Counted from the first letter of the stretch, positions 2,681-63,416 are shown. The stretch is DNA of 64,000 nucleotides from an uncultured Verrucomicrobiae bacterium (GCA_963762565.1 CAVXLD010000001.1:1408001-1472000); one strand, 5' to 3'. Translations and numbers: made by a program. The notes: generated from the letters alone by a model not told the origin.

Positions 2681-2713
2681 AGAATAGCAAATAGCAGATC
2701 GCAAATAGCAAAT
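2681..2713. repeat. TAGCAAA heptamer array (orphan left arm)
   Basis: AGAATAGCAAATAGCAGATCGCAAATAGCAAAT, identical to 62781-62813. Confidence 0.85.
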
Positions 2714-2788
2714 AAAGACTTGGGCGATGCTGCACCGCCACGGCTTCGTTCTCCTCCTCTTAAGGAACACGCGTCGTCGCTCGCCCAA

Positions 2789-3081
2789 CGCCTGGAGGGG
2801 AGCCGCTTTGGCCTGTATGCCTCGCGCTCGCGATATTCGTTTCAGGGCACAATCTGGCTAAAAGAGGTCGCAACAGGCGGCTCCCGCGAATAACCCAGGA
2901 TGATGCAATTATGCTGTGGCTCAATCTGTGGAATCGGCTTGGACACCATCAGTAGACCTGCGCGAGCGCTGGGTGAGTTCCCGGGAGCCGCCTGCTTTCT
3001 ACGCGCATCGGCCGGGGGCCATATTCAGGCGAAACTTAGAAGGTCGGCCCGGCGCGCGCCAAAGCGGCTCCCCTCCAGGCG
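2789..3081. mobile_element. REPIN/MITE-like element, family B
   Basis: Perfect 24-bp terminal inverted repeat CGCCTGGAGGGGAGCCGCTTTGGC; inner inverted pair AGGCGGCTCCCGCGAA / TTCCCGGGAGCCGCCT. Confidence 0.8.
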
Positions 3082-3134
3082 CTGGACGGCTTCTGCACGC
3101 TACGGGGTCGAGGATCCACGGAAGACCGCACGGT

Positions 3135-3608
3135 TCAAGGGATGAGTTGAACCAGCTTTGTCTCGATCCCGGCTTCGCTAAAATCCGCTTTGACAAAACA
3201 GACTGGCAGTTTAAACCGGCGCGGACCTACGCTGCCCGGATTCACGTAAAGCACCCCCTTAGCCTTGCGAATCAGGGGCCGGTGTGAATGGCCGGATACT
3301 AGCATAGCGAAGCCAGCCACCGCGGGATCCAAGTCCAGGTTAGCTAGGACATGGAGCACATATACCAAGTGACCACGAATTGAGACCAATTCCGTCTCTG
3401 GCAGGTCCTTCAGATGATCATCAACGTTTCCCTGAACGGCAACCACGGGAGCATATTGCTTCAGCCGGTGCAGAACCGTCAGCTGCCCGACGTCTCCCGA
3501 ATGCAGGATCAGGTCGACGTTTCCGAGATGTTCCGTCAGTTCCGGACGAAAGAGACCATGAGTATCGCCCAGGATGGCAACGTTCTTAGCGTTCGGATAT
3601 TCGAGCAT
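3135..3608 (-). CDS. YfcE-type metallophosphoesterase
   Basis: GDTHG, HSGD, GNVD, SGHSH and NPGS motifs; start moved to ATG at 3608 (MLEYPN). Confidence 0.85.
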   Translation of the reverse strand: MLEYPNAKNVAILGDTHGLFRPELTEHLGNVDLILHSGDVGQLTVLHRLKQYAPVVAVQGNVDDHLKDLPETELVSIRGHLVYVLHVLANLDLDPAVAGFAMLVSGHSHRPLIRKAKGVLYVNPGSVGPRRFKLPVCFVKADFSEAGIETKLVQLIP

Positions 3609-3650
3609 CGCGTTCAGGTCTAAAATACATCGGATTATCGCCCAGCGCCC

Positions 3651-3790
3651 GGGGGGATTGCGTCCTGGTCCGGCAGCTGCCAGGCAGCTGCGGGATGGTG
3701 ACCGAAGCCGAGGACGTGTTGTGATCGCGGACCGAAATACCTTTTGAGTGGTGGCACGTCCTCGCAGCGCGCGAGGACGCGCGCCCTCCC
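3651..3790. repeat. REP doublet, family C (degenerate left arm)
   Basis: Right arm GCGCGCGAGGACGCGCGCCCTCCC is the reverse complement of the arm starting at 47226. Confidence 0.65.
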
Positions 3791-3921
3791 CCTCCCCGGT
3801 CGCGTCCCGTGTCTCGTATCCCACTACAAATGGACATCTGAGAGCCCACCGACACAAAATATTGCGTTTTTATGAACACTCTTGCTTGGCAGTGTTCAAG
3901 ATCTGCGATAAGAAGGAAGCT

Positions 3922-4824
3922 GTGTTCGAGCTCGCGATTCTTGGAAGTGGCAGCGGCGGAAACAGTGCGCTTATCACAACGGAGAATTGCCGGATACTGG
4001 TCGACGTCGGTTTCAGCGCGAGACAAATTTGCCATCGCCTGGGAGCTCTTGGTGTTACTCCGGACAGCTTGAACGCGATTCTACTCACGCACGAGCACGG
4101 CGATCACATCGCCGGCTTAGACGTGTTCAGTAGTAAGTTCAGGGTCCCGATTTATTCTAACCGGCTGACGGCCGAGGCCATCAGGGCGCAAGGAATAGCT
4201 CCAAATGCGCCCTGGACGATATTCAGCACCGGAACCTCGTTTACGATTCAGGACCTGGATGTTCAGACTTTTTATGTGCCGCATGACGCCGTAGATCCGG
4301 TGGGGCTCATCGCTTCAAGTGGTTATGGTTCAATAGGATTCCTCACGGATCTCGGCTTCGCCACTAAGATGGTCCGGGAACGAATTCGCGAAGTGCACAC
4401 GCTGGTTGTCGAGACCAATCACGACGAACGCAAGCTGCAAGACGATCCTAAAAGACCGTGGTCGGTGAAACAGCGTATTCTTTCCCGCCACGGCCACCTT
4501 TCGAATCGGGCCGCGGCGACCTTGGTAGCGGAGATTGCCGGAGATGGTTTGGAACGAGTGATTTTAGGTCATCTCAGCCGCGACTGTAATACTCAGGAGC
4601 TCGCTCTAGCTGAAATGGAACGCGTCGGGTTAGAACGGCTCGAGTTATTCTGCGCGCAACAACATGAAGTGAGCCCTCGTTTTTCGATCGGTCGGGTATT
4701 GTCTGAAACCGACGATCTAGATGATCTATCGAAGATAGAGGAGCAAATAGATCCAGTTGCCTATCACCAGGCCGACCGTTATCACACGCAATACACGCTG
4801 AACCTGCAATGGGATGGGATGTAA
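3922..4824 (+). CDS. MBL-fold metallo-hydrolase (YycJ/WalJ-like)
   Basis: LGSGSGGN, THEHGDH, PHDA, TDLG, GHLSN and HLS motifs; GTG start at 3922. Confidence 0.88.
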   Translation: MFELAILGSGSGGNSALITTENCRILVDVGFSARQICHRLGALGVTPDSLNAILLTHEHGDHIAGLDVFSSKFRVPIYSNRLTAEAIRAQGIAPNAPWTIFSTGTSFTIQDLDVQTFYVPHDAVDPVGLIASSGYGSIGFLTDLGFATKMVRERIREVHTLVVETNHDERKLQDDPKRPWSVKQRILSRHGHLSNRAAATLVAEIAGDGLERVILGHLSRDCNTQELALAEMERVGLERLELFCAQQHEVSPRFSIGRVLSETDDLDDLSKIEEQIDPVAYHQADRYHTQYTLNLQWDGM

Positions 4825-8020: not shown

Positions 8021-8102
8021 CCGCCCACCAATCACCAATCACCTTTCACCTGTCACCCTTCACCTTTTGCCACGCCCCTTTCCCAAACGGCATCTTTGAC
8101 CG

Positions 8103-10425: not shown

Positions 10426-10539
10426 GGAGTGATGGAGTAGCGGAGTGTTGGAGTAATGGAACGAAAGTGTTCGAGCGATCGGGTAGACAAGCGCACCCGC
10501 AGACCAATCACTAATCACCAATCACTTTTCACTTTTCAC
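10426..10539. repeat. Orphan tandem arms (GGAGTnnn 8-mer left; ACCAATC/ACTTTTC 7-mer right)
   Basis: GGAGTGATGGAGTAGCGGAGTGTTGGAGTAATGG and ACCAATCACTAATCACCAATCACTTTTCACTTTTCAC. Confidence 0.7.
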
Positions 10540-11430: not shown

Positions 11431-11484
11431 ACGAGCGGGCGTATCGGCGAACGGGCGAATGGGCGCGACCGAAGCTGGACGTTG

Positions 11485-11747
11485 GTAGGGCGAGGCTCCG
11501 GAATTAGGGTTGAGGTCCGCAAAGCTGCCGGCGATTTTCCATATTACAGTCTGCAAAAGTCCGATTCACTGCCGAGTCGGGCCCAGCGCGACGCAACCGG
11601 AACCGGCTTTTGGAGTGCCCCATTGATTCCTGGCTATTGACGCATCAGGGGCCGCGGCTCGGCAGCGAATTGGTCTTGCACAAACTATCGTAGAAACCCG
11701 TTAGTAGCCTTGGAAATATCAGCATGGTTTCCGGACCCTCGCCCTAC
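11485..11747. mobile_element. REPIN/MITE-like element, family A, nested inside GGGCGAAT/ATTCGCCC 8-mer arms (11434-11792)
   Basis: GTAGGGCGAGGCTCCGGAA ... TTCCGGACCCTCGCCCTAC; inner CTGCCGAG / CTCGGCAG. Confidence 0.8.
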
Positions 11748-11791
11748 AAAAGCCGAGCTTCGCTCGCCCCTTCGCCCATTCGCCCTCTCGC

Positions 11792-13579
11792 CTACTGACT
11801 CGGCGCAACATACACGTCGTTCCGCACATAGGTACCCACATAACGGTAATGGCTTTTGATGTAGGCTAAGGACGCTGCCGCCCATACACTGAATCGGGAA
11901 GATTCGGTAGCATTGATCGGATCATCGTTGATTAAGATCACAGAGGGTTTCTTCTCTTCAATCGCGGCGATTGTCTCCGTATCAAACGTCGTGGGCCGAG
12001 TGGCATTATCGACATACAAATTATAAAGATAACTTCGGCGATTGGTCATGAAGTTGACTGTCGGCGCGTACGGATAACAAATGACCCAATCGTTCGGTGC
12101 TGAATTCTTGGTCACAACCTGATACAGACCATCGTATTCCGTCTTTTGCTCTTTCGTTAGATAGGCCAGGACACCGTTGTCAGCTCGAAACAATTCTTCG
12201 TGCGGCTTCTTGCGACCAATTGATCCCATCCACGGGACCGCTAACCCGTAATCCAGATAAAACCATAACTGTACTAGCAAAAGGAGCATCCATAGCCGGG
12301 TACTCCAGCGCAACCACCGCTGTGGAGACCTCCAACGCCGGAGTGCCATCTCAAAGGAACAGGCGGAAAGCACCAGGAGCGGACACATCATTTCACTCAA
12401 GTGTTGTGGGTCCGGCCGGAAAAAGAAATATTGCGGGAACAACGTGAAGGCGGAGCCCAGGCCGATGGCTAGAACCAGCGCTTCACTTTTTTCATCAGCC
12501 CGGTTTCTCCTCATCCCGGAAACCGCCAAGAATAGAGCGGCAACCGCCAGGATAGCCCCGCTCAAAAGGGGATAGTACAATAGGAAAACCAGGATCCGTT
12601 TTTTGCCGAACTTTTCCGTGAACATCTGCGTCCAGGCCGGCAATTTTCGTTCTGACCGATCAGCGACCCGCGCTGCCGGGGTCGCATTGGCCACAGGTTG
12701 GATAGGTGGCGACAGTTCTAAAGGATGCCTCGCCGGAGCCGGTTTCAGACTAGCGACACTCACCGCTTTCCCCTCAATAAACTGCCAATAGCTCAGATAA
12801 TTCTCCCAAAAAGCGCCAGCAAAACCGTGTTGCTCCGCATAATAAGTGACCGGTAAATGCACCACCAGAAAGGTCACCGGTAACGCGACAACGGTCAGCA
12901 GAGTAATATTGATGCGCCGCCGGACATCGCCCCCTCCTAGGAGCAAATAAGCCACCGCACTCGCCAATGCCACCCCGCAAAAGAAAATACCAAGATCGAT
13001 CCGGATCAAAAAAGTGAGCGCTACGGCCAGCGCCGCAACGATAACCCAGATCACACGATATTTAGGAGAAGGGTGCGGTAATGCGAAAGCTTCTAACAAT
13101 GCCGCCAGATTGCCGACGCCGAGAAGACCAAGGTAATTACGAAACTGGATTCCGGGTATCAAGATCAAAACCAGGGCGCAACCGAAGGCCAGCGCGCTCG
13201 AGTCGGAAACCCGGCGAACGGACCGATAAGCCAGCAACCCAGTGACGATCGAAAGGCCAAAAAAGAAGATGCGTACGACCGTAAAATTCGGCCCGAAGAC
13301 CTGAAACAGCCAAACGAGCGGATAGAACCAGAGCAAGTTGTAGCCGAGGAAGGTATCAACAAAGGGTCGTTGCCCTTGCAGCAACCTTTGCGCATACACC
13401 GCGGTGGTTCCGCCTTCCCCACCCAAGTCTAGCCCGGACAACGCGTACGTCGCGTAGTAGGCGATAGCAAAACCTAAAAGAAGCGCGGGGAGCCACCATC
13501 GTTTTAAGTGCGCTTTCTTCAGAGCTTCGGAAGTTGAGACAGGTTGTCTAAGCCCGTCGCCTGGCGCTAAGTCGGTCAC
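11792..13579 (-). CDS. Polytopic membrane protein, probable GT-C (ArnT/PMT-like) glycosyltransferase
   Basis: GGEG...AQRLLQGQRPFVD loop after TM1; many TM segments; soluble C-terminal domain. Confidence 0.65.
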   Translation of the reverse strand: MTDLAPGDGLRQPVSTSEALKKAHLKRWWLPALLLGFAIAYYATYALSGLDLGGEGGTTAVYAQRLLQGQRPFVDTFLGYNLLWFYPLVWLFQVFGPNFTVVRIFFFGLSIVTGLLAYRSVRRVSDSSALAFGCALVLILIPGIQFRNYLGLLGVGNLAALLEAFALPHPSPKYRVIWVIVAALAVALTFLIRIDLGIFFCGVALASAVAYLLLGGGDVRRRINITLLTVVALPVTFLVVHLPVTYYAEQHGFAGAFWENYLSYWQFIEGKAVSVASLKPAPARHPLELSPPIQPVANATPAARVADRSERKLPAWTQMFTEKFGKKRILVFLLYYPLLSGAILAVAALFLAVSGMRRNRADEKSEALVLAIGLGSAFTLFPQYFFFRPDPQHLSEMMCPLLVLSACSFEMALRRWRSPQRWLRWSTRLWMLLLLVQLWFYLDYGLAVPWMGSIGRKKPHEELFRADNGVLAYLTKEQKTEYDGLYQVVTKNSAPNDWVICYPYAPTVNFMTNRRSYLYNLYVDNATRPTTFDTETIAAIEEKKPSVILINDDPINATESSRFSVWAAASLAYIKSHYRYVGTYVRNDVYVAPSQ

Positions 13580-13669
13580 AGGACTCGCCTCGATAAGCTT
13601 CGTCCCTAGGCTTGGGCAAGTGGAAAATAAATATTGCTATTTTTTATTCGCTATTTGCTATTTCCTCCC

Positions 13670-16708: not shown

Positions 16709-17137
16709 CTAACTCTTCAGATGACCAAACTCCAATTCCCAGTGCGCCGGCAATCGCATGACTTTCATGTCGGGGAGCTTGACGACCACCAACATCTGTC
16801 TGCAGGTGATCAGCAATTCATTACCGGCCTCTCGCCTGATCGTGAACGCGCACCAGAACCGGGATCGCTCGAATTTTTCTAACTGTCCGTGTACAACCAG
16901 CTTATCCCAAAGCCGGGCCGGACGGCGGTAATCGATCTCAGTCCTCACCACCACCGGACATTCTTGCAGGTCCATCATTTCTCCGAGCTTCCACCCCAAC
17001 TTTTCCGCCAGTAACGACCGGTTGGTTTCGATGAAACGCAGGTAAGCAATGTTATGAACAACCCCTCCGGCATCGGTATCAAAAAACATTACTCGCTCGG
17101 TCGTTTCCAGGGTTGGAGCGTGGTTCTTCGGATCCAT
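16709..17137 (-). CDS. Acyl-CoA thioesterase (YbgC/4HBT family)
   Basis: DTDAGGVVHNIAYLRFIE hotdog-fold motif. Confidence 0.88.
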   Translation of the reverse strand: MDPKNHAPTLETTERVMFFDTDAGGVVHNIAYLRFIETNRSLLAEKLGWKLGEMMDLQECPVVVRTEIDYRRPARLWDKLVVHGQLEKFERSRFWCAFTIRREAGNELLITCRQMLVVVKLPDMKVMRLPAHWELEFGHLKS

Positions 17138-17171
17138 AGTCAGCGCGCTAACTCGCTCTAGGCTCGTCAGC

Positions 17172-17257
17172 GAATAGCAAATAGCAAATAGCAGATAGCA
17201 AACGAGGTCACAAACGGGCCAGCGCTACTCCAGCAGACGATTTGCTATTTGCTATTC
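17172..17257. repeat. Inverted TAGCAAA heptamer array pair
   Basis: GAATAGCAAATAGCAAATAGCAGATAGCAAA ... TTTGCTATTTGCTATTC. Confidence 0.85.
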
Positions 17258-19368
17258 CGAACCTCCTTCAGGCGAGTTCGGAGGTCGTCCGTCGTCGTGA
17301 CCGGCGGTTCACAAGCAAAATGCCGGCAAACATAGGCGGCGGCTTTACCATCAATCAGCCTCATGCCTTTAAGCGCCGGCATATGCTGAGAAAGCCAAGA
17401 ATCGCTTTCATCGGCGTAGAGTACGATTTTGTCTGGTGAGAAGAGTTGGCCAATCACTTTGATTAGGGGTTCTTCATTCTTGTCCTGAGTGGCGATCACC
17501 ACTTGGACCGGCTCCGCCAACAATCCACACAATGCCGCCAGCATTTGAGGTACCGCAGCAGGGCTCCGCTCCAGGACAGCGGCGTAGCTGGTCATGATCC
17601 GGTAAGCACCGTCTCGGAACTCCGTTAGGTCAAAGATCCAACCCAGCCGGAGCAGGTTCATCGCAGCAACGGAGTTAGCCGCCGGCTCGGCGCCATCATG
17701 GTCATCTCTTAACCGAAACAAGATATCCGCCGCCCCTTCTTCGGTGCTGAAATAGCCGCCTTTCGGATCAGCAAATAAAGCTCCCATTTGCACCTGGAGC
17801 TCACCCGCCCAACGCAACCATCGGGTATCAAAGTCTGCCTCGTACAAGTCCAATAAACCTTGGATGAGAAACGCGTAATCCTCGGCAAACGCGTAAATCG
17901 AACTCGGACCTTCACGATAGCTGCGCAGTAAACGCTTATGGTAAAGGTGACGTTGAATGAAATCTGCGGCTCGTTGCGCCGTTTCTAGATGCTGCACCTC
18001 TCCCAATACCTGATAAGCCTTGGCGAATGCCGTAATCGTCATCCCGTTCCAAGCGGTGACGATTTTATCGTCCAGGTGCGGACGCGGACGGCGAGAACGA
18101 ATTTCGAACAATTTCTTTTGAGCTGACGCCAAAAGCTGTTGGATAACATCCACGGGCTTACCCGTGAGCTTCGCCACCAACTCCGGTTCAGTTTGTCGGA
18201 ACAGAACATTTTGGCTGCCTAACTCACCGTGCGGGTCACTGTCAGGAGAGACGTTTCCTGCCTGTTCCACTCCAAAAGTACGGCGAAACACGGTGGCTTC
18301 GTCCGGCGTCAGGTACTCATTAATTTCGTCAGCGGTCCAAACGTAAAAGGCACCTTCTCGTTTGTGATCCGCCTCGGCGCTAGGCAAACTATCGGCATCT
18401 TCCGCGGAATAGAACCCGCCTACAGAAGAGGTCAGGTCTCGTTTGATATAGGCCAAGGTTTCACGCGCAACTTGCGCAAACCAACTGTCCTGAGAGATTT
18501 GGAACGCTTCTAAGTAGACGACTGCCAATTGGGCCTGATCGTACAACATTTTTTCAAAATGGGGCACGTGCCAGCGCGCATCGACCGAGTATCGGTGAAA
18601 GCCGCCACCCAGGTGATCATACATCCCGCCATCCGCCATTTTTTTGAGGCTGAACAAGGCCATATCCCGGGCTTGATCTGAACCCGTTCGGTACCAATAC
18701 CGGAAAAGAAAATTGAAGACGGCTGGACGCGGAAACTTAGGGGCAGGACTGAATCCCCCTTCGTCCGGGTCGAAGCCCTGAGCCAGTTGTTGATAGCCCA
18801 GGTCGAGCCATTCTTCGCGCGGCGCCGAGATATCTTTGGCGGACGTATTGACTAGATAAGATTGGATCGCGTCGGTGAACCGATTGCCTTGCTCGACAAT
18901 CTTTTCGGGTTGTTTTGCCCAGATGTCGGCCAGACGGGTCAACAAAGAACCAAAGCCCGGACGGCCATATCGATCATCCGGTGGATAATACGTGCCTCCC
19001 AAAAACGGTTGGATCGTGGGTGTCAGGAACACACTCATCGGCCAACCACCGGAGCCAGTGGTACTTTGTACAAAGAGCATGTAGACCCGATCAACATCAG
19101 GTCGTTCTTCGCGGTCGACCTTAATGCTGATAAAGTGCTCGTTGAGGAGGGCGGCGATGGCAGGGTTTTCGAACGATTCGTGCTCCATGACGTGGCACCA
19201 ATGGCAGGTCGAATATCCGATCGACAGAAAAATCAGTTTGTTCTCAGATCGCGCGTTGGCGAAGGCCTCTTCTCCCCATGGATACCAGTCCACCGGGTTG
19301 TGCGCGTGTTGGAGCAAGTAGGGCGATCTTTCGCTGATCAGCCGATTTGTGTGAGGTTCCCCGCTCAT
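17245..19368 (-). CDS. Thioredoxin-domain protein YyaL/SSP411 family
   Basis: [23 protein letters not shown] and PHFEKMLYD motifs; ATG at 19368. Confidence 0.92.
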
Positions 19369-19386
19369 GCAGCAGCAAACCACGGG

Positions 19387-19510
19387 TCCTTCGGAATAGC
19401 CAATCGACAATAGCCGATAGCCAATAGCGAATGGTCCTGATCGGCCCTGTGCGGGGTTTACAGCAGATCGACTTGGCTATTGGCTATCGGCTATCGTTTA
19501 TTCCGAAGGA
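19387..19510. repeat. Inverted ATAGCCA heptamer array pair
   Basis: TCCTTCGGAATAGCCAAT...ATAGCCGATAGCCAA / TTGGCTATTGGCTATCGGCTAT...TATTCCGAAGGA. Confidence 0.85.
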
Positions 19511-19583
19511 GCCTAAGCGACTTCGGATTGACATTCGGGCTCGGGACGTAGAGGTTTGATTACCGTTAACATTCCCCTCAGTT

Positions 19584-20021
19584 ATGTCATCGGCGGATTT
19601 AAATAACGGGAGTCCAGATTTCCGTCATCCGGAAAAGACGGATTCGGTCGACGAGTTGACCCGAGTCTATGGCGGACTTGCACCCCGATTGTTCTTCAGC
19701 CAACTAGTGCAGGACTTTCGCCCCGTTCGCTCGTTGCAACCGGAATTGGAGCGAGCCTCGTTCTTATACTGCCGGATGCGTGGCTATCGTTTATGGCTTT
19801 TGTTCTGGAGCGCTATTTCTATTCTCATACCCACGTTGCCGCTCCTGTGCCTGATTTCACCCGCTGACCTCGGTTTAACCTGGTTCGTTTGCGCGATCTG
19901 TGCCGAAGGACCAGCCGTTTTTATCTTGTGGAAAATCCATCACAAGTGGATCTCCTGCCGGCGTGATTACACCCGCTGGTTGCGCTTGGTACACCGGCGA
20001 GTCGCAGAAGAAGAGGGGTGA
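19584..20021 (+). CDS. Hypothetical two-TM membrane protein
   Basis: 145-aa ATG ORF filling the gap; two hydrophobic segments. Confidence 0.6.
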   Translation: MSSADLNNGSPDFRHPEKTDSVDELTRVYGGLAPRLFFSQLVQDFRPVRSLQPELERASFLYCRMRGYRLWLLFWSAISILIPTLPLLCLISPADLGLTWFVCAICAEGPAVFILWKIHHKWISCRRDYTRWLRLVHRRVAEEEG

Positions 20022-20168
20022 GTTGCGGGCTTCGGGTTGCGAGTTTGCCGGAGCTAGCGGCGCATATAAATCCTATCGATCGGGGTCCTAATGCGCGCCG
20101 AGGCGCCGTGTGGCTTCGGTCAAAACGGCAACGCGTAACCCGCAACTCGTAACCCTTAACCCGCAACC
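20018..20168. repeat. Inverted GTTGCGG/CCGCAAC heptamer array pair
   Basis: GAGTTGCGGGCTTCGGGTTGCGAGTT / AACCCGCAACTCGTAACCCTTAACCCGCAAC. Confidence 0.75.
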
Positions 20169-20169
20169 T

Positions 20170-20652
20170 TCACGGTTTGAGCGGAAACTGTTCTCGATTT
20201 GACGGCCGTACCAGCAACACGGGGCAGGGAGCATGATCAAGCACGAACCGCGCGACGTGCCCTACTGATTTCGGGCCAATCTTATGCTTGTCTTTATACT
20301 CGGCTCGCGGACAAATGATGATTAGGTCGGCGCCCCACTCGGCTGCGGCGTTGACAATCTCGCGTTCCGGTCGCCCCTCGCGTTGCAAAACCTCAGCCCC
20401 AGATAGGTAGCGTAAGCTTTCTTCGATGATTTCCCGGGCCGAAGTTTGTTCTACTTCCACCATTTGATGTTCTCGACGGGGCGGCGGACCAGGCGGCCGA
20501 AAAAACCGCTCGCGAGTATGCTCGATGTCATGATGCGGTCCCTTATCAATCACGTAAATAACACCCAGGGACAATCCGGCCGGCGTGAGCAAGGCCGTCG
20601 CTCTGCCGATCGATTCAAGGTTGGTTCCGTCGAGGCAACAGAGTACGCGCAT
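20170..20652 (-). CDS. Universal stress protein
   Basis: GRPEREIV...ADLII, GHVARFVLDHAPCPVLLVR. Confidence 0.9.
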   Translation of the reverse strand: MRVLCCLDGTNLESIGRATALLTPAGLSLGVIYVIDKGPHHDIEHTRERFFRPPGPPPRREHQMVEVEQTSAREIIEESLRYLSGAEVLQREGRPEREIVNAAAEWGADLIIICPRAEYKDKHKIGPKSVGHVARFVLDHAPCPVLLVRPSNREQFPLKP

Positions 20653-20676
20653 CGCTTCGCTCCTTCTTCTTTTCTG

Positions 20677-21984
20677 CTACAGCAGTAACCAGATAGTGAG
20701 TGCTCCGGCGAGCAACATGATCGGAGTAACTATCACACCGACCTTAAAATAATCGAGACCGGAGACATCGATGCCTTGCCGGCGCAAGATCAGCAACCAT
20801 AAGACGGTGGCCAACGAACCGACAGTGGTGAGATTTGGTCCGAGATCGCAACCAAACATCGTGGCGGCGAGGAATCCATGTTGAACGGCCACCGGTGCAT
20901 GTTGAATACTTCCCAAAGCGGAACTCATCATCACCGCCATCGGGATATTGTTGATTAGGTTCGTGCCCAGCGCCGCTCCGGCTGTCCCTACCATCACCGC
21001 CCCAAAACTGTTTCCTCCTGAAAGCTGTAATAGCCAATTGCCGAAGCCGGCGGCGAGTCCGGTATCTTCGATCGCCCGGATCACAATGGACATGCCGGCG
21101 ATGAACCCGAAGATAGACCAAGAGATCCGTTTGCCGGTCTCGCGCAGCGTACTCTGTTTCCAGCTGAGCGCTCCCACTAGTAACAAAAAAGCGGCTCCGC
21201 CCGCGACCAGTGAGAGGGGAATCCGTGCGGCCGACGCCAGCACGTATGCCACCGCGACACCGATCAAAACCAAACAAGTGTACCGAAAATAGGCGCGATG
21301 TTTGATCGTTTCATTAGCCGAGGGCAAACGCTCGGCCTTGAACTGTCCCTGGAGCTCGTCGCGATAAAGCAGAAAGAAAATCCCGATATTAATTCCGATG
21401 ACAACCAGACTCGGCAGCAGCAACAAGCGTAAGAAGGTTAAAAGATCGAGAGGAAAATGGGACAGGATAATAATATTGATGGGATTACTGACCGGTAACA
21501 AAAACGAGGCGGTATCAGCGATGAAGGTACAAGCAAACAGATAAGGTAAAATCGGCAGGCGCAGTTTCGTGACCAGGACATAGACAACCGGGGTTAGGAT
21601 CAAAGCGGTTGCATCGTTGGACAGGATCATTGAGATCAAGGTCCCTAGGAGGAAGATGTTCAGGAACAACCGCCGGGCACTTTGCTGGGCCAGGCGCGCC
21701 GCTTGAACTGCCAGCCAATCAAAGAGACCGGCTGCCTCCGCCAAGGCGGACAAGCTCATCATGCCGAGAAAGAAGAGGAAGGTGTTCCAGTCCCGGCAGA
21801 GAGTAAAAAAGGCATCGGCCGGGCTGATAAGGCCGAGTAAGAGCAGCAGACTCGCCCCACCCATCGCGATTGTCGCCTCATTCCAGCGGAACGGACGCGT
21901 CATGATGCCAATCAACGTTAGTCCGCCCACGAATGACGCGATTATTGTCTTCGTGAGCTCAGGTACCGAAATAAACTGGAACAA
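20677..21984 (-). CDS. ArsB/NhaD family ion transporter
   Basis: SNDATALILTP, SFLLPVSNPIN, NNIP, GPNLT.VGSLAT..W motifs. Confidence 0.85.
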   Translation of the reverse strand: MFQFISVPELTKTIIASFVGGLTLIGIMTRPFRWNEATIAMGGASLLLLLGLISPADAFFTLCRDWNTFLFFLGMMSLSALAEAAGLFDWLAVQAARLAQQSARRLFLNIFLLGTLISMILSNDATALILTPVVYVLVTKLRLPILPYLFACTFIADTASFLLPVSNPINIIILSHFPLDLLTFLRLLLLPSLVVIGINIGIFFLLYRDELQGQFKAERLPSANETIKHRAYFRYTCLVLIGVAVAYVLASAARIPLSLVAGGAAFLLLVGALSWKQSTLRETGKRISWSIFGFIAGMSIVIRAIEDTGLAAGFGNWLLQLSGGNSFGAVMVGTAGAALGTNLINNIPMAVMMSSALGSIQHAPVAVQHGFLAATMFGCDLGPNLTTVGSLATVLWLLILRRQGIDVSGLDYFKVGVIVTPIMLLAGALTIWLLL

Positions 21985-22062
21985 CCGAATCCTTTCTGAT
22001 GGCGGTCACGAAAAACAGCAAGCTTGATTGCGGGTGGCGGCTCGTCAATGCATTTGTGAACA

Positions 22063-23043
22063 ATGCAGGCTGACCACATGCAACTCCCGATCCGCGAGTT
22101 TGTGCGGCGTGATTTCGTCCAACTCTCTCAGAACATGCGGGTCAGCGAAGCGTTAGACTTCATTCGAGATTACCGTTCACCGGGACAATCGTTGATCTAT
22201 TTCTATGTGGTCGATGAGGCATCCCGCCTCGTTGGGGTACTGCAAACGCGCGCGCTGCTCACATCGCAACCGGACGAGTCTCTCGCCGATGTGATGATCC
22301 GGCAAGTCATCGCGATTCCAGAAAGCGCCACCGTGCTCGAGGCCTGCGAATTTTTTGTCCTGCACAAATTTTTGGCGTTTCCGATTGTCGATCGAGAACG
22401 GCGGCTCAAGGGCGTCGTCGACATTAACTTGTTTAACGAGGAAGTCTTCGGAATCCCCGAGACAGAGAGGAGCGATGACCTATTCCAGGCGATCGGCTTT
22501 CACATCGCTCAAGCGCGATCGGCCTCACCGTTACAGGTGTTCCGCTTTCGTTTCCCATGGTTACTGGTCACAATCGCTGGAGGAACGGTGTGCGCCTTTG
22601 TTGCGCAGGCGCACGAGAAGACGCTCCAACACACGTTAGTAGTGGCCTTTTTCATGACCCTCATATTATCAATGGGAGAAAGTGTAGCGGTGCAATCCTT
22701 GGCCCTCGTTTTGGAAACGTTAAGGCTGCGAAATGTTACACCAATGTGGTTCTTCAACACGTGCAAACGGGAGGTAGTAACCGCGATGCCTCTCGCGGCC
22801 GCCACCGGTATTGTGGTGTTTATCGTCGTCTTGATAGTGGACCATGCGCTTTGGCCTGCGACCGTCATCAGCGCAAGCTTGGCAATCGGGGTGGGCGCCT
22901 CCTGTTTACTCGGCATCAGTATCCCGACCTTGTTACGCGTGGCGAAGCTCGATCCTACCATCGCCGCCGGCCCGATCACCTTGGCGGCGACGGATGTTGC
23001 GGTGTTGCTGATTTATCTGGGGATTACTGGAGTGCTGTTGTAG
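22063..23043 (+). CDS. mgtE: MgtE-type magnesium transporter
   Basis: CBS pair followed by RFPWL and DPTIAAGPITLAATD membrane domain. Confidence 0.85.
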   Translation: MQADHMQLPIREFVRRDFVQLSQNMRVSEALDFIRDYRSPGQSLIYFYVVDEASRLVGVLQTRALLTSQPDESLADVMIRQVIAIPESATVLEACEFFVLHKFLAFPIVDRERRLKGVVDINLFNEEVFGIPETERSDDLFQAIGFHIAQARSASPLQVFRFRFPWLLVTIAGGTVCAFVAQAHEKTLQHTLVVAFFMTLILSMGESVAVQSLALVLETLRLRNVTPMWFFNTCKREVVTAMPLAAATGIVVFIVVLIVDHALWPATVISASLAIGVGASCLLGISIPTLLRVAKLDPTIAAGPITLAATDVAVLLIYLGITGVLL

Positions 23044-23073
23044 CGGGAAGGCGAGGCCGGGCTCGGACCGATG

Positions 23074-23232
23074 AGTGGACGGACTGGACACAGTGGACGG
23101 GAGTGGACCGGGTGGACGTAGTGGACACCGTAAGCGGCGTGCACGGATCATTTGGGCGAGACGCGAAACGTCCACTCCCGTCCACTGTGTCCACCACGTC
23201 CACTTAGTCCACTTAGTCCACTTTCGTCCACT
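23074..23232. repeat. Inverted GTGGAC ~9-mer array pair
   Basis: Six (G/C)TGGAC units facing seven GTCCAC units. Confidence 0.88.
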
Positions 23233-23279
23233 CTGGATTTATTTTGGATGAGGGACGATTCCTGGCCTATTTGTGCACC

Positions 23280-24131
23280 ATGGCTTCGGATACAAAGACT
23301 TCTCGCGCGTGGTTCATTACCGGCTCGTCAACCGGCTTCGGCAGGGTATTAGCAGAGATGCTTTTGAAACGGGGCGAGCGCGTGGCCGTGACGGCACGTA
23401 ACCCCGATCAGATTCAGGACCTGGTTGGCTGCTACAAGGACAGGGGATTGGCGCTGGCGTTAGACGTGAACCAGCCAAAGCAAGTCGCATCGTCGGTTGC
23501 TGCCGCCGAAAAGTTTTTCGGTCAAATTGATGTGTTGGTTAATAACGCTGGGTACGGTTATCTGGCCGCAGTCGAAGAGGGCGAAGCAGACGAAGTACGC
23601 GCCATGTTTGAGACCAATTTTTTCGGCTTGGTAGCGGTCACAAAAGCCGTACTGCCCGGGATGAGAGCTCGGGGCGCTGGGCACATTGTGAATATCAGTT
23701 CTATCGGTGGCCTGGTGGCGAATCCAAGCGTCGGCTATTACGCAGCCACTAAGTTTGCCGTTGAAGGTCTATCGGAGGCTCTAGCCAAAGAAGTAGAACC
23801 TTTGGGTATTCGGGTAACCGCCATTGAGCCTGGCCCTTTCCGCACAGATTGGGCAGGCCGCTCGTTGAAAGTGGCCAAAGGGTCGATACCCGAGTATGTG
23901 GGTACCGCTGGCGCGCGTAGCCGTGAGATCGCGGAGCGTAGCGGGAAACAGCCTGGTGATCCGGTTCGGGCTGCCGAAGCAATCATCACGATCGTTGAGG
24001 CTGACCAACCGCCGCGCAATCTCTTTTTGGGTAAGAGAGCCGTGGACATGGCCCGAGAGAAGCTAACCTATCTTTCCGGGACTATCGAACAATGGGAGGA
24101 ATTGTCGTTGGGAACCGATTTCCCTGACTGA
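23280..24131 (+). CDS. SDR family oxidoreductase
   Basis: TGSSTGFG, NNAG and YAATK motifs; ATG at 23280. Confidence 0.92.
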   Translation: MASDTKTSRAWFITGSSTGFGRVLAEMLLKRGERVAVTARNPDQIQDLVGCYKDRGLALALDVNQPKQVASSVAAAEKFFGQIDVLVNNAGYGYLAAVEEGEADEVRAMFETNFFGLVAVTKAVLPGMRARGAGHIVNISSIGGLVANPSVGYYAATKFAVEGLSEALAKEVEPLGIRVTAIEPGPFRTDWAGRSLKVAKGSIPEYVGTAGARSREIAERSGKQPGDPVRAAEAIITIVEADQPPRNLFLGKRAVDMAREKLTYLSGTIEQWEELSLGTDFPD

Positions 24132-24816: not shown

Positions 24817-24817
24817 A

Positions 24818-42557: not shown

Positions 42558-42634
42558 CCCCGAGGCTCCGGTCACACTTTCGCCCATTCGCCGCTTCGCC
42601 CTATCGCCGGTTCGCTTACTCGCATTTCCTACTT

Positions 42635-45312: not shown

Positions 45313-45399
45313 CTCGTAATCGTTCTCGTCGTTGTCGAGCGCGGTTGTGGCCAGCGCACGGAAGGGGCCTGCATCGCGCAAATCGAGGACGATTACGAG
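45313..45399. repeat. Inverted hexamer array pair
   Basis: CTCGTAATCGTTCTCG / CGAGGACGATTACGAG. Confidence 0.7.
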
Positions 45400-46398: not shown

Positions 46399-46642
46399 AA
46401 AATCTCACGCAAAGACGCCAAGGCGCAAAGTTCGAAGAAGAAAGCCGGAATAGCCGCGAAAGAACGCAAAAAACGCAAAAAAAAGACAGCCCCGGTAGGG
46501 CGAGGCTTCATTCCCCCTGCGACCTCTTTGGGTTTTTCCGGAGCCTAGCCCTACCAACTTTCTTTGCGTTCTTTGCGATCTTTCGCGGCTAATTTTGCCT
46601 TCTGTCTTTCCTTTGCGTCTTGGCGTCTTTGCGTGAGATTTT
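46399..46642. repeat. Three nested inverted-repeat layers
   Basis: Outer 46399-46430/46611-46642; middle 46451-46479/46563-46591; collapsed family A core 46494-46555. Confidence 0.88.
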
Positions 46643-49603: not shown

Positions 49604-50208
<605 letters not shown>

Positions 50209-50823: not shown

Positions 50824-50962
50824 GGAGCCCACGAACAGGCAAATGATAGAGCTGCCGCCGGTCAAAGCCCGGGTGCAACCTACCCTCGCTTCTCACCCAT
50901 TCGACCCGCTCGATGCTTGCTCGGGGCAGGCCTCTCACCAATCACTTCTCACCTCTCACTTC

Positions 50963-52420
50963 TCACCTCTCACCCAAGAGTGGCTTCGCCAGATGCCAAT
51001 CGGTGTTCTGCTCATAAGCGTGTGCCACTCGCAACACGGTGGCTTCGTCCAGTGCTTTGCCTAGGATTTGCAATCCGATCGGCAATTTCTTTCCTTCAAC
51101 CTCGGCGAAACCACACGGGATACTAATCCCGCAAATCCCGGCCATGTTCGCAGCCAAAGTGAAAATATCCGCCAGATACATTTGCAGCGGGTCACCGGTC
51201 CGCTCGCCCAGTTTGAACGCTGGAATCGGGGAAGTCGGGCACAGAATGGCGTCAACTTTGGCAAAAGCGTCATCAAAATCGCGCCGAATCAAGGTCCTTA
51301 CTTTCTGAGCACGCAAATAGTAGGCATCGTAATAGCCGGAGCTCAGAGCATAAGTACCCAGGATGATCCGCCGTTTTACTTCCTGTCCGAAACCCTCCTC
51401 CCGGGTCTTGCCATAATGATCCAGCAAACCAGTGGTTCCTTCAGCCCGGAAGCCATAACGGACACCATCGAATCGGGCGAGATTGGCTGAAGCCTCAGCT
51501 GGAGCGATGATGTAGTAAGTGCTCAGGGCATACTCGGTGTGGGGCAGCGAAATATCGACGACCTTCGCACCCAGCTTTTCGTAGCGAGCAACGGCAGCTC
51601 GCACTGTTTCTTCAACCTGAGGATCCAGACCTTCAATGAAATATTCTTTGGGCAACCCGAGAGTAAGCCCCCTTACTCCTTGGTCCAGATCCGCTGTGTA
51701 ATCAGGAACCGGCGCATCCAACGTTGTTGAATCGCACGGATCCACCCCACTGATGACGTTCATGATAAGTGCCGCGTCACGGACGTCCTTTGCGAGCGGT
51801 CCGATCTGGTCCAAAGACGAAGCAAACGCGACCAAACCATAACGGGAAACGCGCCCATAAGTCGGTTTGACGCCCACGCAGCCGCAAAGGGCAGCGGGTT
51901 GACGAATCGAGCCTCCGGTATCAGAGCCAAGCGCAGCCAATGCTTCATCGGCAGCGACCACCGCGGAGGACCCGCCACTTGAACCGCCGGGCGCTCGTTC
52001 CGGGTCCCAAGGGTTATGGGTCGGCCCGAATGCAGAATTTTCCGTAGACGACCCCATGGCGAACTCGTCCATGTTCGTCCGGCCGAAAGGGATGGCGCCC
52101 GCTGCTCGCAATTTTTTGATTACGGTGGCGTCGAACGGAGCGGTATAGCCTTTTAAAATCTTGGAAGCGCAGCCGCAGGGATGACCTTTAACACTGACGA
52201 CATCCTTGATGGCAATGGGAATACCTCCCAGCGGAAGAGAAACGTCCGCGTGCTCCGCCTCCTCCAAAGCGCGCTGCGGATCGAACGATAAGTATCCGTG
52301 AACCACTTCGTCGACCTGTTCGATTCGTCTGATTAGCGCTTCGACAATCTCTTTCGGCGATATCTCTTTCCGCCGAAGCAGGTCCAGAGCCTCGTGAACG
52401 GTGAGTGAAGACAATCCCAC
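50963..52420 (-). CDS. gatA: Asp/Glu-tRNA amidotransferase subunit A
   Basis: IAIKD, GGSSGGS, GSDTGGSIRQP and VKRRIILG motifs. Confidence 0.96.
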   Translation of the reverse strand: MGLSSLTVHEALDLLRRKEISPKEIVEALIRRIEQVDEVVHGYLSFDPQRALEEAEHADVSLPLGGIPIAIKDVVSVKGHPCGCASKILKGYTAPFDATVIKKLRAAGAIPFGRTNMDEFAMGSSTENSAFGPTHNPWDPERAPGGSSGGSSAVVAADEALAALGSDTGGSIRQPAALCGCVGVKPTYGRVSRYGLVAFASSLDQIGPLAKDVRDAALIMNVISGVDPCDSTTLDAPVPDYTADLDQGVRGLTLGLPKEYFIEGLDPQVEETVRAAVARYEKLGAKVVDISLPHTEYALSTYYIIAPAEASANLARFDGVRYGFRAEGTTGLLDHYGKTREEGFGQEVKRRIILGTYALSSGYYDAYYLRAQKVRTLIRRDFDDAFAKVDAILCPTSPIPAFKLGERTGDPLQMYLADIFTLAANMAGICGISIPCGFAEVEGKKLPIGLQILGKALDEATVLRVAHAYEQNTDWHLAKPLLGER

Positions 52421-52709: not shown

Positions 52710-52740
52710 CGAGAAGCCTTAACGAATAGAACGCCCTAGA

Positions 52741-52846
52741 AACGCCGTCAACGCCCTTAGCAACGCCGGGACCGCCGCGATCGCCGACAACGCCGACAAC
52801 GAGATCAGATGCCGGCGATGACGGCGATAAGGGTTTTGTCGGCGTT
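52741..52846. repeat. Inverted AACGCCGAC 9-mer array pair
   Basis: AACGCCGTCAACGCCCTTA... / ...TAAGGGTTTTGTCGGCGTT. Confidence 0.75.
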
Positions 52847-53960: not shown

Positions 53961-54177
53961 AATCGTTCTCGTCCTCGTCGTCGTCCTCGAATGGGTGTGG
54001 ACCGCTTAGCGATGCGACTAGGGTCTGAGTCATATTAGTCCTATAGGTCCTATAGGTCCCATACGTCCTATACGTCCTATCCGTGCCATGCGCTCCATCG
54101 CGCCTCTGACCAAAGCGACCGCCACCACCTGAAGACCCAAATCGAGGACGAGGACGACGACGAGAACGAGAACGATT
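53961..54177. repeat. Inverted hexamer arms enclosing a TATAGGTCC 9-mer array
   Basis: AATCGTTCTCGTCCTCGTCGTCGTCCTCGA / TCGAGGACGAGGACGACGACGAGAACGAGAACGATT; 9-mers at 54031-54080. Confidence 0.85.
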
Positions 54178-58779: not shown

Positions 58780-58879
58780 TTTTAACAGGAGGGAACAGAG
58801 CAAACAGAGGGAAGACTTGCCGCCATTGGCACGCGGGTCCTTATAAATCTCCGTTTCCTCTGTTATCTCCCGTTTAAAA
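58780..58879. repeat. Inverted AACAGAG 9-mer array pair
   Basis: TTTTAACAGGAGGGAACAGAGCAAACAGAG / CTCCGTTTCCTCTGTTATCTCCCGTTTAAAA. Confidence 0.75.
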
Positions 58880-58903
58880 CTTCTGTTCCGGCAGTTACTC
58901 ACT

Positions 58904-59807: not shown

Positions 59808-59862
59808 GCGTTTTCGCCGGCGCGCCGTTTCGCCCATTCGCCCTTTTCGCCCTTTTCGCCCC

Positions 59863-62779: not shown

Positions 62780-62781
62780 CA

Positions 62782-62875
62782 GAATAGCAAATAGCAGATC
62801 GCAAATAGCAAATGGGGCTTTTGAACTGCCCAGCGCTCGGTTCGCGGACAATTTGCTATCTGCTATTTGCTATTC
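62782..62875. repeat. Inverted TAGCAAA heptamer array pair
   Basis: GAATAGCAAATAGCAGATCGCAAAT / ATTTGCTATCTGCTATTTGCTATTC. Confidence 0.88.
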
Positions 62876-62894
62876 AGTCCGGCTCTGACGGCAG

Positions 62895-62958
62895 CCTGGA
62901 GGGGAGCCGCTTTGTAGTGTGGCAGCTCTGTAGCTTGGCAGCAAGCGGCTCCCGGGAA
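62895..62958. repeat. Half copy of family B element
   Basis: CCTGGAGGGGAGCCGCTTTG...GCAAGCGGCTCCCGGGAA; right half absent. Confidence 0.75.
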
Positions 62959-62973
62959 TGACCCAGGCTCTGG

Positions 62974-63288
62974 CTATTCCGGCCCCGGATCCAAAGACCT
63001 CAAATACTCGTATGAATAAATCCCGGAGCTATGGCCGTCAGCCCATACCGGTTGAAGTGCATAGCCACCGATTGGAGCGCACGATTTCAACACGAAACTG
63101 TCCGCAGACCAAGTTGGCGACCCTCCGTATTGCCGTCCTAACAGATCTTTCTCTCCGGCGCAAACCGCGCATGGACACCTCCGGCGCAACTCATCCAGGC
63201 GAATGTAACTCTCCACGCCATCTTTCCAGCGGATGGCAAGTTCCTCACCGATGACTGCATACGATTCTAACGCCAAGGTGCTTCCCAT
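62974..63288 (-). CDS. DUF971 / GBBH-N-like protein
   Basis: LRRRCPCAVC, GGYAL...WADGHSSGIY motifs. Confidence 0.88.
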   Translation of the reverse strand: MGSTLALESYAVIGEELAIRWKDGVESYIRLDELRRRCPCAVCAGEKDLLGRQYGGSPTWSADSFVLKSCAPIGGYALQPVWADGHSSGIYSYEYLRSLDPGPE

Positions 63289-63353
63289 ATTTTACGATCG
63301 TCCTCGACTCCTCAGATAGAGCGAACAAGCAAAAGATGGCGTGTTACCGCCAA

Positions 63354-63416
63354 TTTGTCATTTGTCATCTGTCATTTGTCATCCCCTTTGGCTATCGGCT
63401 ATTGGCTATTGGCAAT
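63354..63416. repeat. Orphan right arms: TTTGTCA and TTGGCTA heptamer arrays
   Basis: TTTGTCATTTGTCATCTGTCATTTGTCAT and TTGGCTATCGGCTATTGGCTATTGGC. Confidence 0.8.

Follow-up and report, generated by a model that had tools for sequence, protein, structure and literature searches.

A 64,000-nt stretch of the genome of an uncultured Verrucomicrobiae bacterium (GCA_963762565.1, here G000; contig C1, 1408001-1472000; hereafter the window) carries short tandem arrays in most of its intergenic gaps, and a part of these arrays face each other as inverted pairs. We consider it fairly probable that the arrays are the terminal arms of small gene cassettes, which resemble the intervening sequences (IVSs) of bacterial 23S rRNA genes, and, far more often, copies of such arms without a gene. 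Two inverted arms bracket either a gene or an intergenic spacer, and each unit family has its own polarity. The arms come in two classes. The IVP class has about five boxes with a period of 7-8 nt (rarely 6 or 10) within about 31-33 nt, and its genes encode the four-helix-bundle 23S rRNA intervening-sequence protein (IVP; PF05635/TIGR02436). The GxxExxY class has about three boxes roughly 9-10 nt apart, and its genes encode PD-(D/E)XK nucleases (PF13366/TIGR04256).

The G000 assembly comprises 6.12 Mb in 15 contigs with a G+C content of 54%. Judged by the best hits of its GatA protein, which are metagenome-assembled genomes labelled Chthoniobacterales with identities up to 80%, the organism appears to be a Chthoniobacterales-like Verrucomicrobium. 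The genes in the window are unremarkable housekeeping genes, among them fpg, efp, priA, gatCA, glnB and one similar to htrA, and a search of the window against Rfam at the gathering cut-off gave no match. An earlier note, made from the window sequence alone, had proposed that most gaps carry paired inverted arrays and that one mechanism generates them. Arrays were found at every site that it named, most of them by Tandem Repeats Finder (TRF) and the others by reading of the sequence (20022, 27544, 29405, 35215, 36956, 45313, 46403 and 58784; positions without a contig name refer to the window). TRF reported 76 rows for the window, with periods from about 6 to 10 nt, and an array is present in 29 of the 45 gaps of at least 40 nt (64%). 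Most gaps therefore do hold an array. An inverted pair was found in only 9-10 of the 45 gaps by a strict test and in about 14 by eye, so that the claim of pairing in most gaps was too wide.

Arrays as fixed-length modules in inverted pairs

In the whole genome, the short-period arrays detected by TRF merge into 4479 arrays, which cover 142,762 nt (2.3% of the genome). The most frequent period is 7 (1542 arrays), followed by 9 (819), 8 (637), 10 (380) and 6 (334). With a rough gene model (open reading frames (ORFs) scored by codon usage, most-upstream starts, 60 nt trimmed from each 5′ end), there were 1.98 arrays per kb outside the interiors of genes, about 7 times the value of 0.27 per kb within them. 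Intergenic segments gave 3696 TRF rows as compared with 217 in one dinucleotide-preserving shuffle of the same segments (17-fold). Thus, both conditions that the earlier note had named as refuting it (pairing and polarity no more frequent than in composition-matched shuffles, or arrays equally common in coding sequences) fail. There are 1200 distinct units, and the largest single family has 201 arrays.

The heptamer arrays have a preferred length. The mode of the length distribution is 30-33 nt, corresponding to about 4.5 copies (431 of 1542 arrays), with side peaks one unit off, and the phase of the arms is fixed at both boundaries. For example, the 33-mer of the AGGAGCT family, which has an off-consensus AGAATCT unit at its centre (AGGAGCTAGGAGCTAGAATCTAGGAGCTAGGAG), is present in 31 exact copies and in 136 copies at three or fewer mismatches. 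The AGAATCT centre unit was found in 102 of the 143 arrays that have the flanks of this 33-mer, and the uniform version has only two exact copies. Recurrent 31-mers are also found for the AATAGCA and AATGACA arms, and in these an inner unit carries a G variant. With a preferred length, and with position-specific variants shared by copies at unlinked loci, a family thus amounts to a fixed-length module that is dispersed over the genome and periodic inside. The arrays are fixed modules and not products of local slippage, for which locally uniform units and a decaying length distribution would be expected.

Pairing was measured between neighbouring arrays of period 6-11 (n = 3852) at a distance of 300 nt or less, and the unit match allowed rotation and one mismatch. 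Among 1841 neighbour pairs, 493 were inverted, 21 direct, 4 reverse-only and 53 complement-only; as a baseline, 5.5% of random same-period pairs matched. Inverted pairing beyond chance, which had been claimed from the window, is thus a property of the genome. When a more sensitive search for partners of at least two units was used, 975 of 2741 intergenic arrays had an inverted partner and 42 had a direct one. The median spacer of the 493 inverted pairs is 96 nt. Between arrays 300-3000 nt apart there was no general signal (210 inverted and 198 direct pairs, polarity 113 versus 94), and the ORFs inside these long-range pairs are ordinary genes, except for those of the IVP and GxxExxY families.

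The inverted pairs have a marked polarity. The left (5′) arm is purine-rich in 421 of the 493 pairs, pyrimidine-rich in 67 and tied in 5. This bias is equal in the ++, --, +- and -+ gene contexts, as is expected because an inverted pair looks identical from either strand. The purine-rich arm is on the left in 83 of 98 families and on the right in 13, and in most families the polarity is near-absolute (purine-rich arm left:right, AAATGAC 49:0, AGCTAGG 39:0 and AATCACC 33:0). Reversed polarity was found in the hexamers ACGAGG (0:19) and ACGAGC (0:6) and, by the purine measure, in the heptamers AAACGCC (0:14) and AACGCCG (0:10). Genome-wide, the side preference persists at about 2:1 in arrays for which no partner was detected. 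The inward reading of the purine-rich strand in most families, the side preference of orphan arms and the reversal of the hexamer family had all been read correctly from the window. Among arrays within 30 nt of a gene, about 80% are oriented so that the purine-rich strand reads away from it.

The spacers had been described as unique, and this is often not the case. Matches by blastn were found for 835 pairs of spacers, of which 743 join different unit families and 92 are within a family. The matches across families are caused by other repeat elements nested inside the spacers, namely an element of about 130 nt (GGGAGGG...CGCGTCCTCGCG), an element beginning with GGATCCGCCTTCGC that has a 9-mer tail, and inverted repeats of the GGGGCGAGGCTCC type. 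The within-family matches that were inspected could be traced to nested repeats or to a local duplication. Arms of the AGGAGCT family are often located at both extremes of a gap, with other content including other repeats between them. Where inverted pairs share a neighbourhood, 8 are nested, 1 is interleaved and 4 lie side by side; the numbers are small, and the excess of nesting fits repeated insertion into existing loops.

Two further features of the arm sequences were observed. Many AATAGCA and AATGACA arms have a small hairpin on their outer side (17141-17168 and 17257-17285; C1:224022, C1:32400 and C1:170300). The stem of this hairpin is variable but paired, and its conserved loop, TCGCCTNAGGCTC, contains the palindrome CCTNAGG. 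In the AGGAGCT 33-mer, the centre unit creates CTAGAATCT, in which an inward-reading TAGAAT resembles a -10 element (family AGCTAGG; C1:137813 is an example), and AGCTAGG-family arms in divergent gaps are 40-60 nt from both genes. These arms might therefore supply promoters.

Small genes between the arms

PF13366 (PDDEXK_3) has 11 loci in G000, three of them split or broken, and PF05635 (23S_rRNA_IVP) has 7 loci above the cut-off. All 11 PF13366 loci are located between inverted arms, and the flanks that were read contain about three boxes, about 9-10 nt apart, of types that include CACAGAG, CGCAGAT, CGCAACG, CACAAAG and ACGAAT. Six of the 7 PF05635 loci are located between inverted arrays of 6-8-nt units, and the seventh gene is truncated; one of the IVP sequences matches TIGR02436 at 8.7e-23. 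The arm units at the IVP genes are GGTGATT, GTGAGAR, GTAAGCA, AATAGCC, GGAGTGTT and, with reversed polarity, CGAGGA. The IVP arm families are among the largest of the genome: AATCACC has 201 arrays, ACGAGG 169, AATAGCC 79, and AAGTGAG 75 together with ACCTCTC 69. Further IVP arm families are AAGCAGT (67 arrays) and octamers of the ACCACTCC/AACACTCC type (33 for AACACTCC).

The earlier note had suggested GxxExxY, four-helix-bundle and RAYT (Y1 transposase) genes as possible occupants of the arms, and the first two were indeed found there. RAYT-like genes are not flanked by arrays. Five small Y1_Tnp genes are present in G000 (C7:408772, C3:712536, C3:55497, C9:102253 and C1:119032), and all of them are bracketed by repetitive extragenic palindromes (REPs) such as GTCCCGTAGGGAC and CCAGGCATTTCATGCCTGG. 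This shows that an ordinary REP/RAYT system coexists with the array systems in G000, and RAYT genes were rejected as owners of the arrays. Several specificities, as had been proposed, fit the observation that the arms of individual small genes correspond to particular unit families. A single mechanism does not, because at least two gene classes (the four-helix-bundle IVP and the GxxExxY nuclease) are involved, with REP/RAYT and nested repeats in the same gaps.

The association is not confined to G000. The survey covered 31 genomes of the order, from which we took 30 loci of IVP genes and 30 of GxxExxY genes; a few of these loci belong to G000 itself. At each locus, the two flanks of 330 nt were compared and the best local inverted repeat joining them was scored, with a threshold of at least 28. 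Full flanks were available for 27 of the 30 IVP loci, and 24 of these 27 reached the threshold; the arm period was 7 in 17 of them, 8 in 6 and 10 in 1. Among the GxxExxY loci, 26 of 30 reached the threshold. In contrast, only 15 of 300 random G000 genes of 100-200 aa did so. Moreover, relatives have IVP cognates for families that lack a gene in G000, namely AGGAGCT (in G014), AGGAGCC (in G004 and G005, where the AGAATCC centre unit is likewise present), AATGACA (in G007) and octamers of the GGCG type (in G002, G003, G009 and G013).

An IVP of G000 has the solved homologues 2rld and 2gsc, which were both deposited with five chains, and the Xanthomonas S23p structure is cited as a homopentameric toroid in PMC4990558. 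The approximately five boxes of the IVP arms hint that the arms might be read by such a ring. In the proposed mechanism, the ring-forming IVP and the nuclease would each read phased boxes, and gene-less arms would spread in trans via the cassette-encoded proteins, as REPINs (inverted REP doublets) do with RAYT. Either strand of a doublet, or its transcript, could fold into a stem of about 16-33 bp between the arms; stems of this size were predicted for all five window doublets that were folded as RNA (z -2.4 to -7.7), and terminal inverted repeats that form a long stem are also a feature of IVSs. Such stems would suit RNase III. If transcribed doublets were cut by this enzyme, like the arms of true 23S rRNA intervening sequences, insertions between genes would be tolerable. 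That IVP pentameric rings and GxxExxY nucleases are sequence-specific readers of phased box arrays, and that together with the arms they constitute a RAYT-independent, REPIN-like mobile DNA, is a tentative proposal, and we regard it as possible rather than probable.

No insertion was found in the single 23S rRNA gene of G000 (C12:223485-226335; 2851 nt for 2925 model positions). All elements described here are located between protein genes, and not in helix 25 or 45 of 23S rRNA. The window has no IVP gene; it contains gene-less arms and one GxxExxY cassette.

One IVP gene, at C7:441213, has expanded arms. More than 25 octamers of the GGAGTGTT type are located upstream and a long CCACCACT array downstream. 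Thus, arms can also grow well past the usual five boxes.

Turnover between genomes and alternative explanations

Inverted pairs were counted in 200 kb of each genome (183 kb for G024). There were none in G022, G030 and G026, each of which is 99% complete and in which neither gene family was found. Four genomes with the genes (G012, G016, G024 and G017) have 3-5 inverted pairs, and G000 has 28. Because the genomes are related to each other and the sample is small, this co-occurrence is supportive only.

The arrays turn over between closely related species. Genomes of the same genus have coding DNA about 80% identical to that of G000 and share the gene order. We made 24 bounded comparisons of orthologous gaps with G002 and G005. 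Arrays were confined to G000 in 8 of them and to the relative in 2; the families differed in 9, a family was common to both, at least in part, in 3, and neither gap held an array in the remaining 2. In six further comparisons, including that of the GxxExxY cassette, the array-bearing gaps can be aligned straight through; retention was inspected by eye for the gap at 19383. The gap at 17138-17298 contains AATAGCA units in G000, GTAATCA in G002, GTAAGCA in G005 (with one unit of the other type left) and nothing in G001. In the gap at 19383-19527, an AATAGCC doublet is common to G000 and G002. Its arms and outer stem are kept, with indels of 7-nt units, and the spacers (40 nt versus about 10 nt) cannot be aligned; in G005 this gap contains a hexamer doublet instead. 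This gap indicates that loops turn over much faster than arms, and such turnover can reconcile the spread of doublets as units with spacers that look unique. The gap at 20022 has no array in G002 and a different 9-mer in G005, and the doublet at 23073 has 6 + 7 units in G000 as compared with 3 + 2 in G003.

Differences were also found in metagenome contigs. One bridging contig (X5 record 10), with an identity of about 97%, replaces the 185 nt of 23049-23233 by 97 nt, and a strain contig (run X2) has one extra 8-nt unit, CGGCGTAT, behind 34199. Only these two observations were kept. Most contig joints and depth spikes at arrays (17000-36999) were not used, since the same arms occur at other loci or in other organisms. 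Slippage acts secondarily, changing the copy number by whole units.

Two gaps differ by larger segments. At 20022-20169, G002, G005 and G003 have about 0.7 kb of extra DNA, apparently a reverse-strand gene, and G000 has only arrays. At 21985-22062, about 5.2 kb are present in G002 and about 1 kb in G003, as compared with only 60 nt in G000.

Several results weigh against arms derived from gene cassettes. Three of the biggest families (AGCTAGG with 170 arrays, AAATGAC with 116 and AAACGCC with 72) have no cognate gene in G000, and G021 has both gene families yet no inverted pair in 200 kb. The GxxExxY cassette of the window can be aligned in G002 with an identity roughly that of its neighbours; it was therefore inherited and has not recently moved. 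In the comparisons made, we saw no transposition event, target-site duplication or exact empty site. Copies of the same family do not share spacers, so that a doublet moving as a unit needs rapid loop change, for which there is one orthologous example (19383). Furthermore, the complementarity of an arm to its own partner was not above that to an arm of the same family elsewhere (mean 21.9 versus 23.6, with the control slightly favoured by design), and hence there is no sign of local selection for pairing. In a test for pairing at the RNA level, mismatches of the G.U type numbered 212 on the sense strand and 179 on the antisense strand, a weak difference that is not significant.

The last two results also bear on the idea that the doublets are host-serving RNA structures under selection (RNase III sites, bidirectional terminators or insulators), with the small genes as occasional passengers. 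The position of the arrays agrees with this idea: of 1439 stop-proximal arrays, 531 have the stop codon within 10 nt, the median distance to the nearest gene end is 15 nt for paired arrays in convergent gaps, stable stems are predicted for the window doublets, and RNase III cuts the equivalent stem in Coxiella (PMC4990558). However, divergent gaps, which require no terminator, have almost as many pairs (87 in 332 kb) as convergent gaps (122 in 310 kb). The orthologous gaps of sister species hold other families or nothing, and close relatives within the order are essentially without pairs. Together with the lack of surplus complementarity and of significant G.U asymmetry, these findings make host-serving structures unlikely. 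Slightly less likely still is that the arrays are bound by IVP rings or by other DNA-binding proteins, such as those of chromosome organisation, and were spread and kept uniform by gene conversion and not by transposition. In favour of this are the concerted difference of units at 17138 between G002 (GTAATCA) and G005 (GTAAGCA, with one unit of the other type left), the conserved arms with non-conserved spacers, and the phased boxes with a preferred number near five, equal to the five chains of 2rld and 2gsc. Gene conversion requires an existing target array, however, and so cannot seed new gaps, whereas 10 of the 24 gap comparisons are differences of presence and absence between species.

In a further scenario, arms would be written de novo onto the 3′ ends of nicked or broken DNA, a short template being copied again and again in a telomerase-like fashion. 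This would account for the inward reading of one and the same strand on both sides, which is observed in all gene orientations. A candidate would be an Avd-like protein with a reverse transcriptase: IVP is distantly similar to Avd, the accessory protein of diversity-generating retroelements (NF033474, 27.6 bits, below the cut-off of 80), and reverse-transcriptase genes are present in G000. Nevertheless, we regard this as very improbable. The fixed phase at both arm ends, the preferred length and the conserved off-consensus centre unit (about 100 copies) point to copying of the whole 31-33-nt module and not to repeated 7-nt copying, and no reverse-transcriptase gene adjoins the cassettes whose flanks were read. 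Least credible of all is the birth of each array on the spot by replication slippage, with the inverted pairs due to chance or to quasi-palindrome correction. Unit-number polymorphism does occur (the 8-nt insertion at 34199, the 7-nt indels of orthologues and the 6 + 7 versus 3 + 2 units at 23073). Slippage as the origin, against which the earlier note had already spoken, is refuted by the excess of inverted over direct pairs, the length mode in place of a decay and the identical complex modules at more than 100 unlinked loci; the 17-fold excess over shuffled DNA and the tie to two gene families also speak against it, and it stands only as a secondary process.

Elements of the window and relation to known repeats

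The one complete cassette of the window is a GxxExxY cassette at 36939-37585 on the minus strand, with the gene at 36995-37414 (-; PF13366, 1.8e-31; TIGR04256, 1.3e-34). Its arms consist of CGCGAAT/ACGAAT boxes at 36956-36987 and 37527-37559, with outer CGCAGAT boxes. A doublet of three 10-nt boxes of CGCAGATT at 29405-29563 (TRF and sequence reading) has arms of the GxxExxY type, and this unit also flanks GxxExxY genes at C1:643983 and C11:64902.

Several gene-less doublets were detected by TRF: a wide doublet of GGCGAA-type octamers at 11432-11796 (arms 11432-11465 and 11763-11796, a strict inverted pair), AATAGCC at 19395-19496 (predicted fold -65.7 kcal/mol, z -7.7), AGGAGTTC octamers at 24818-24943 (z -2.8), GGCGAAAC octamers at 41430-41523 (-58.9 kcal/mol, z -6.0) and AATAGCA at 62783-62874 (-43.0 kcal/mol, z -6.3). 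Another AATAGCA doublet, at 17141-17285 (arms 17169-17202 and 17240-17256; -46.7 kcal/mol, z -2.4), has small outer hairpins on both sides, and the loop of the left one resembles the conserved TCGCCTNAGGCTC motif. By TRF together with sequence reading we identified a doublet of GGAGTGAT (x4.4) followed by AATCACT/TCACTTT arrays at 10426-10539, a GTTGCGG/GCAACCC doublet at 20022-20168 (20022-20051 and 20128-20168), a GTGGAC 9-mer doublet of about 6 + 7 units with variable linkers at 23073-23233, an element at 49604-49810 that combines an GGCGAAAC arm (x4.8) with a degenerate partner at 49783-49810 and a nested GTCCCATAA 9-mer stretch at 49715-49734, and 9-mer arrays of the AACGCCGAC type upstream of gatC at 52730-52828. 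Reading of the sequence gave a GTGAAAG doublet at 27544-27874 (27544-27561 and 27859-27874), which encloses an inverted repeat of the GGGGCGAGGCTCC type (27566-27591 and 27827-27852), a short hexamer doublet of reversed polarity at 45313-45399 (45313-45339 and 45382-45399) and a degenerate AACAGAG box doublet at 58784-58889.

Other gaps have a layered structure. At 31298-31647, an outer CGCGAAT doublet (31298-31327 and 31627-31647) surrounds an inner CGCAGATTA doublet (31418-31446 and 31538-31563). At 35154-35364, a solo AGAATCC/AGGAGCC arm (35154-35180) is followed by a CGCAGAT doublet (35215-35246 and 35343-35364). A three-layer nest at 46403-46638 (TRF and sequence reading) consists of an outer CGCAAAG box doublet (46403-46430 and 46611-46638), a CGCAAAA/CGCGAAAG doublet (46452-46485 and 46558-46590) and a central inverted repeat of the GGGCGAGGC type. 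Hexamers of reversed polarity surround 9-mer arrays at 40566-40738 (TCGTCC-type 40566-40581, CGAGGA 40712-40738, 9-mers 40649-40676) and at 53963-54175 (TRF and sequence reading; TCGTCC 53963-53989, CGAGGA 54143-54175, GTCCTATAC 9-mers 54038-54089). The TCGTCC/CGAGGA arms of the latter also flank an IVP gene at C5:382164.

Solo arms were found by TRF at 2683-2714 (AATAGCA x4.6), 13634-13663 (TTGCTAT x4.3), 33452-33485 (GGAGTACT x4.2), 34185-34209 (GGCGTATC x3.1, with one 8-nt unit more in the strain contig), 42579-42615 (TTCGCCC-type) and 59812-59861 (TTTCGCCC x5.9). A pyrimidine-rich CACCAAT/TCACCTT arm on the right side of its gap (8026-8067) belongs to the AATCACC family, which has a cognate IVP gene at C11:15998, and the CCTCTCA arm (x6.3) at the 3′ end of gatA (50931-50974) has its IVP cognate at C11:106043. 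Two adjacent pyrimidine-rich arms, ATTTGTC x4.3 and TTGGCTA x3.7, are located on the right side of a gap at 63353-63413.

The repeats nested in these doublets were also observed elsewhere. The element of about 130 nt, with GGGAGGG(A/C)(T/G)CGCGTCCTCGCG termini, resembles a miniature inverted-repeat transposable element (MITE) and is located inside doublet spacers of several unit families (C1:88058, C1:558123, C12:161168 and C12:368792). The inverted repeat GGGGCGAGGCTCC/GGAGCCTCGCCCC stands just inside the arms at 27566-27591/27827-27852 and 46494-46510/46540-46556, and a related motif adjoins the arrays of G002 and G005 in the gap orthologous to 17138. The 9-mer arrays of the GTCCTATAG/CTATGGGAC type (54038-54089, 40649-40676 and 49715-49734) are mostly nested within hexamer doublets. 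Elsewhere in the genome these 9-mers are joined to a conserved element of about 45 nt, GGATCCGCCTTCGCAAAGCCTACGGCGCGACAGGCT (C1:82719 and C1:1259798).

REPs and REPINs are short extragenic modules in hundreds of copies, often arranged as inverted, hairpin-forming doublets and dependent on the RAYT (Y1) transposase. The arms of G000 are likewise extragenic modules in hundreds of copies, form inverted doublets with a short spacer and turn over quickly between species, and one or a few gene-bearing copies per family are flanked by the same repeats. Unlike the REP/RAYT system, the flanked genes are not Y1 transposases and no cognate RAYT was found, and the arms are tandem box arrays with strong strand asymmetry and not palindromes. 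We know of no mobilising activity of IVP or GxxExxY proteins. Unlike a MITE, the spacers of one family are unrelated and have no conserved interior, and no target-site duplication was visible in the flanks read, where the boundaries were not exactly mapped. The short tandemly repeated repetitive (STRR) sequences of heterocystous cyanobacteria are tandem heptamers, present in few copies in intergenic DNA. In Beggiatoaceae, intergenic TAACTGA heptamer repeats have been described (PMC4679880). Both are similar to the G000 arrays in being few-copy tandem heptamers that are overwhelmingly intergenic, patchy across phyla and unexplained in function. In contrast, the available texts describe them as direct repeats of one or few units, with a single inverted set in a Beggiatoa genome, and mention no link to a flanked gene. 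Although the sequence type is the same, we set the G000 arrays apart from STRR because the organism is Chthoniobacterales-like.

The closest resemblance in build is to the ORF-bearing 23S IVSs of Coxiella burnetii and Leptospira, in which terminal inverted repeats, pairing into a stem of about 28 bp, enclose a PF05635 gene. In the Coxiella IVS, the 28-bp terminal stem is cut by RNase III, and tandem GACAGAT heptamers, whose number varies by strain, are located in the 5′ arm upstream of the S23p ORF (PMC4990558). As in G000, the purine-rich arm is upstream of the ORF, and the unit GACAGAT, which also occurs inside AATGACA arms, equals that of the G000 family ACAGATG (61 arrays) after rotation. 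However, the elements of G000 are outside rRNA and its 23S gene is uninterrupted; thousands of mostly gene-less intergenic arms in at least 98 unit families are present, a second gene class (GxxExxY) has the same build, and cutting by RNase III is presumed here. In the Ssn system, a small nuclease gene is likewise tied to a short repeat (NTS/SRM) with hundreds of genomic copies, and the nucleases recognise their repeats in a family-specific manner (PMC11893778). The Ssn nucleases have the GIY-YIG fold and not PD-(D/E)XK, and their repeats, as described in the abstract, are not phased tandem boxes in inverted doublets. In a literature search that covered subscription papers only in part, PMC4990558 was the only paper found to connect S23p with heptameric repeats, and no paper linking arrays to the two gene families was found beyond this description of the Coxiella IVS. 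The available parts of a survey of prokaryotic satellites and of PMC4679880 give no link of such repeats to a flanked gene.

The present analysis adds statistics at the scale of the genome, a family-wise rule of polarity, a quantised length of the arms, the assignment of families to genes, and data on co-occurrence and turnover. To our knowledge, the tandem heptamers of bacterial intergenic DNA have been unexplained for decades, and S23p/IVP and GxxExxY are two very large protein families for which we know of no function. G000 is an extreme case, in which the repeats make up 2.3% of the DNA in about a hundred unit families with fixed polarity. Because families can be matched one by one to the arms of individual small genes, they provide candidate protein partners for thousands of unexplained repeats. 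For annotation, most 5′ and 3′ untranslated regions of G000 carry such arms, and sister species differ in their arms at 19 of the 24 gaps compared. If the rings and nucleases do read the arms, a RAYT-independent class of mobile DNA could overrun a genome (about 4500 arrays, and 64% of the gaps in the window), and the same explanation would also extend to the 23S rRNA intervening sequences and to the STRR-type heptamers of other phyla.

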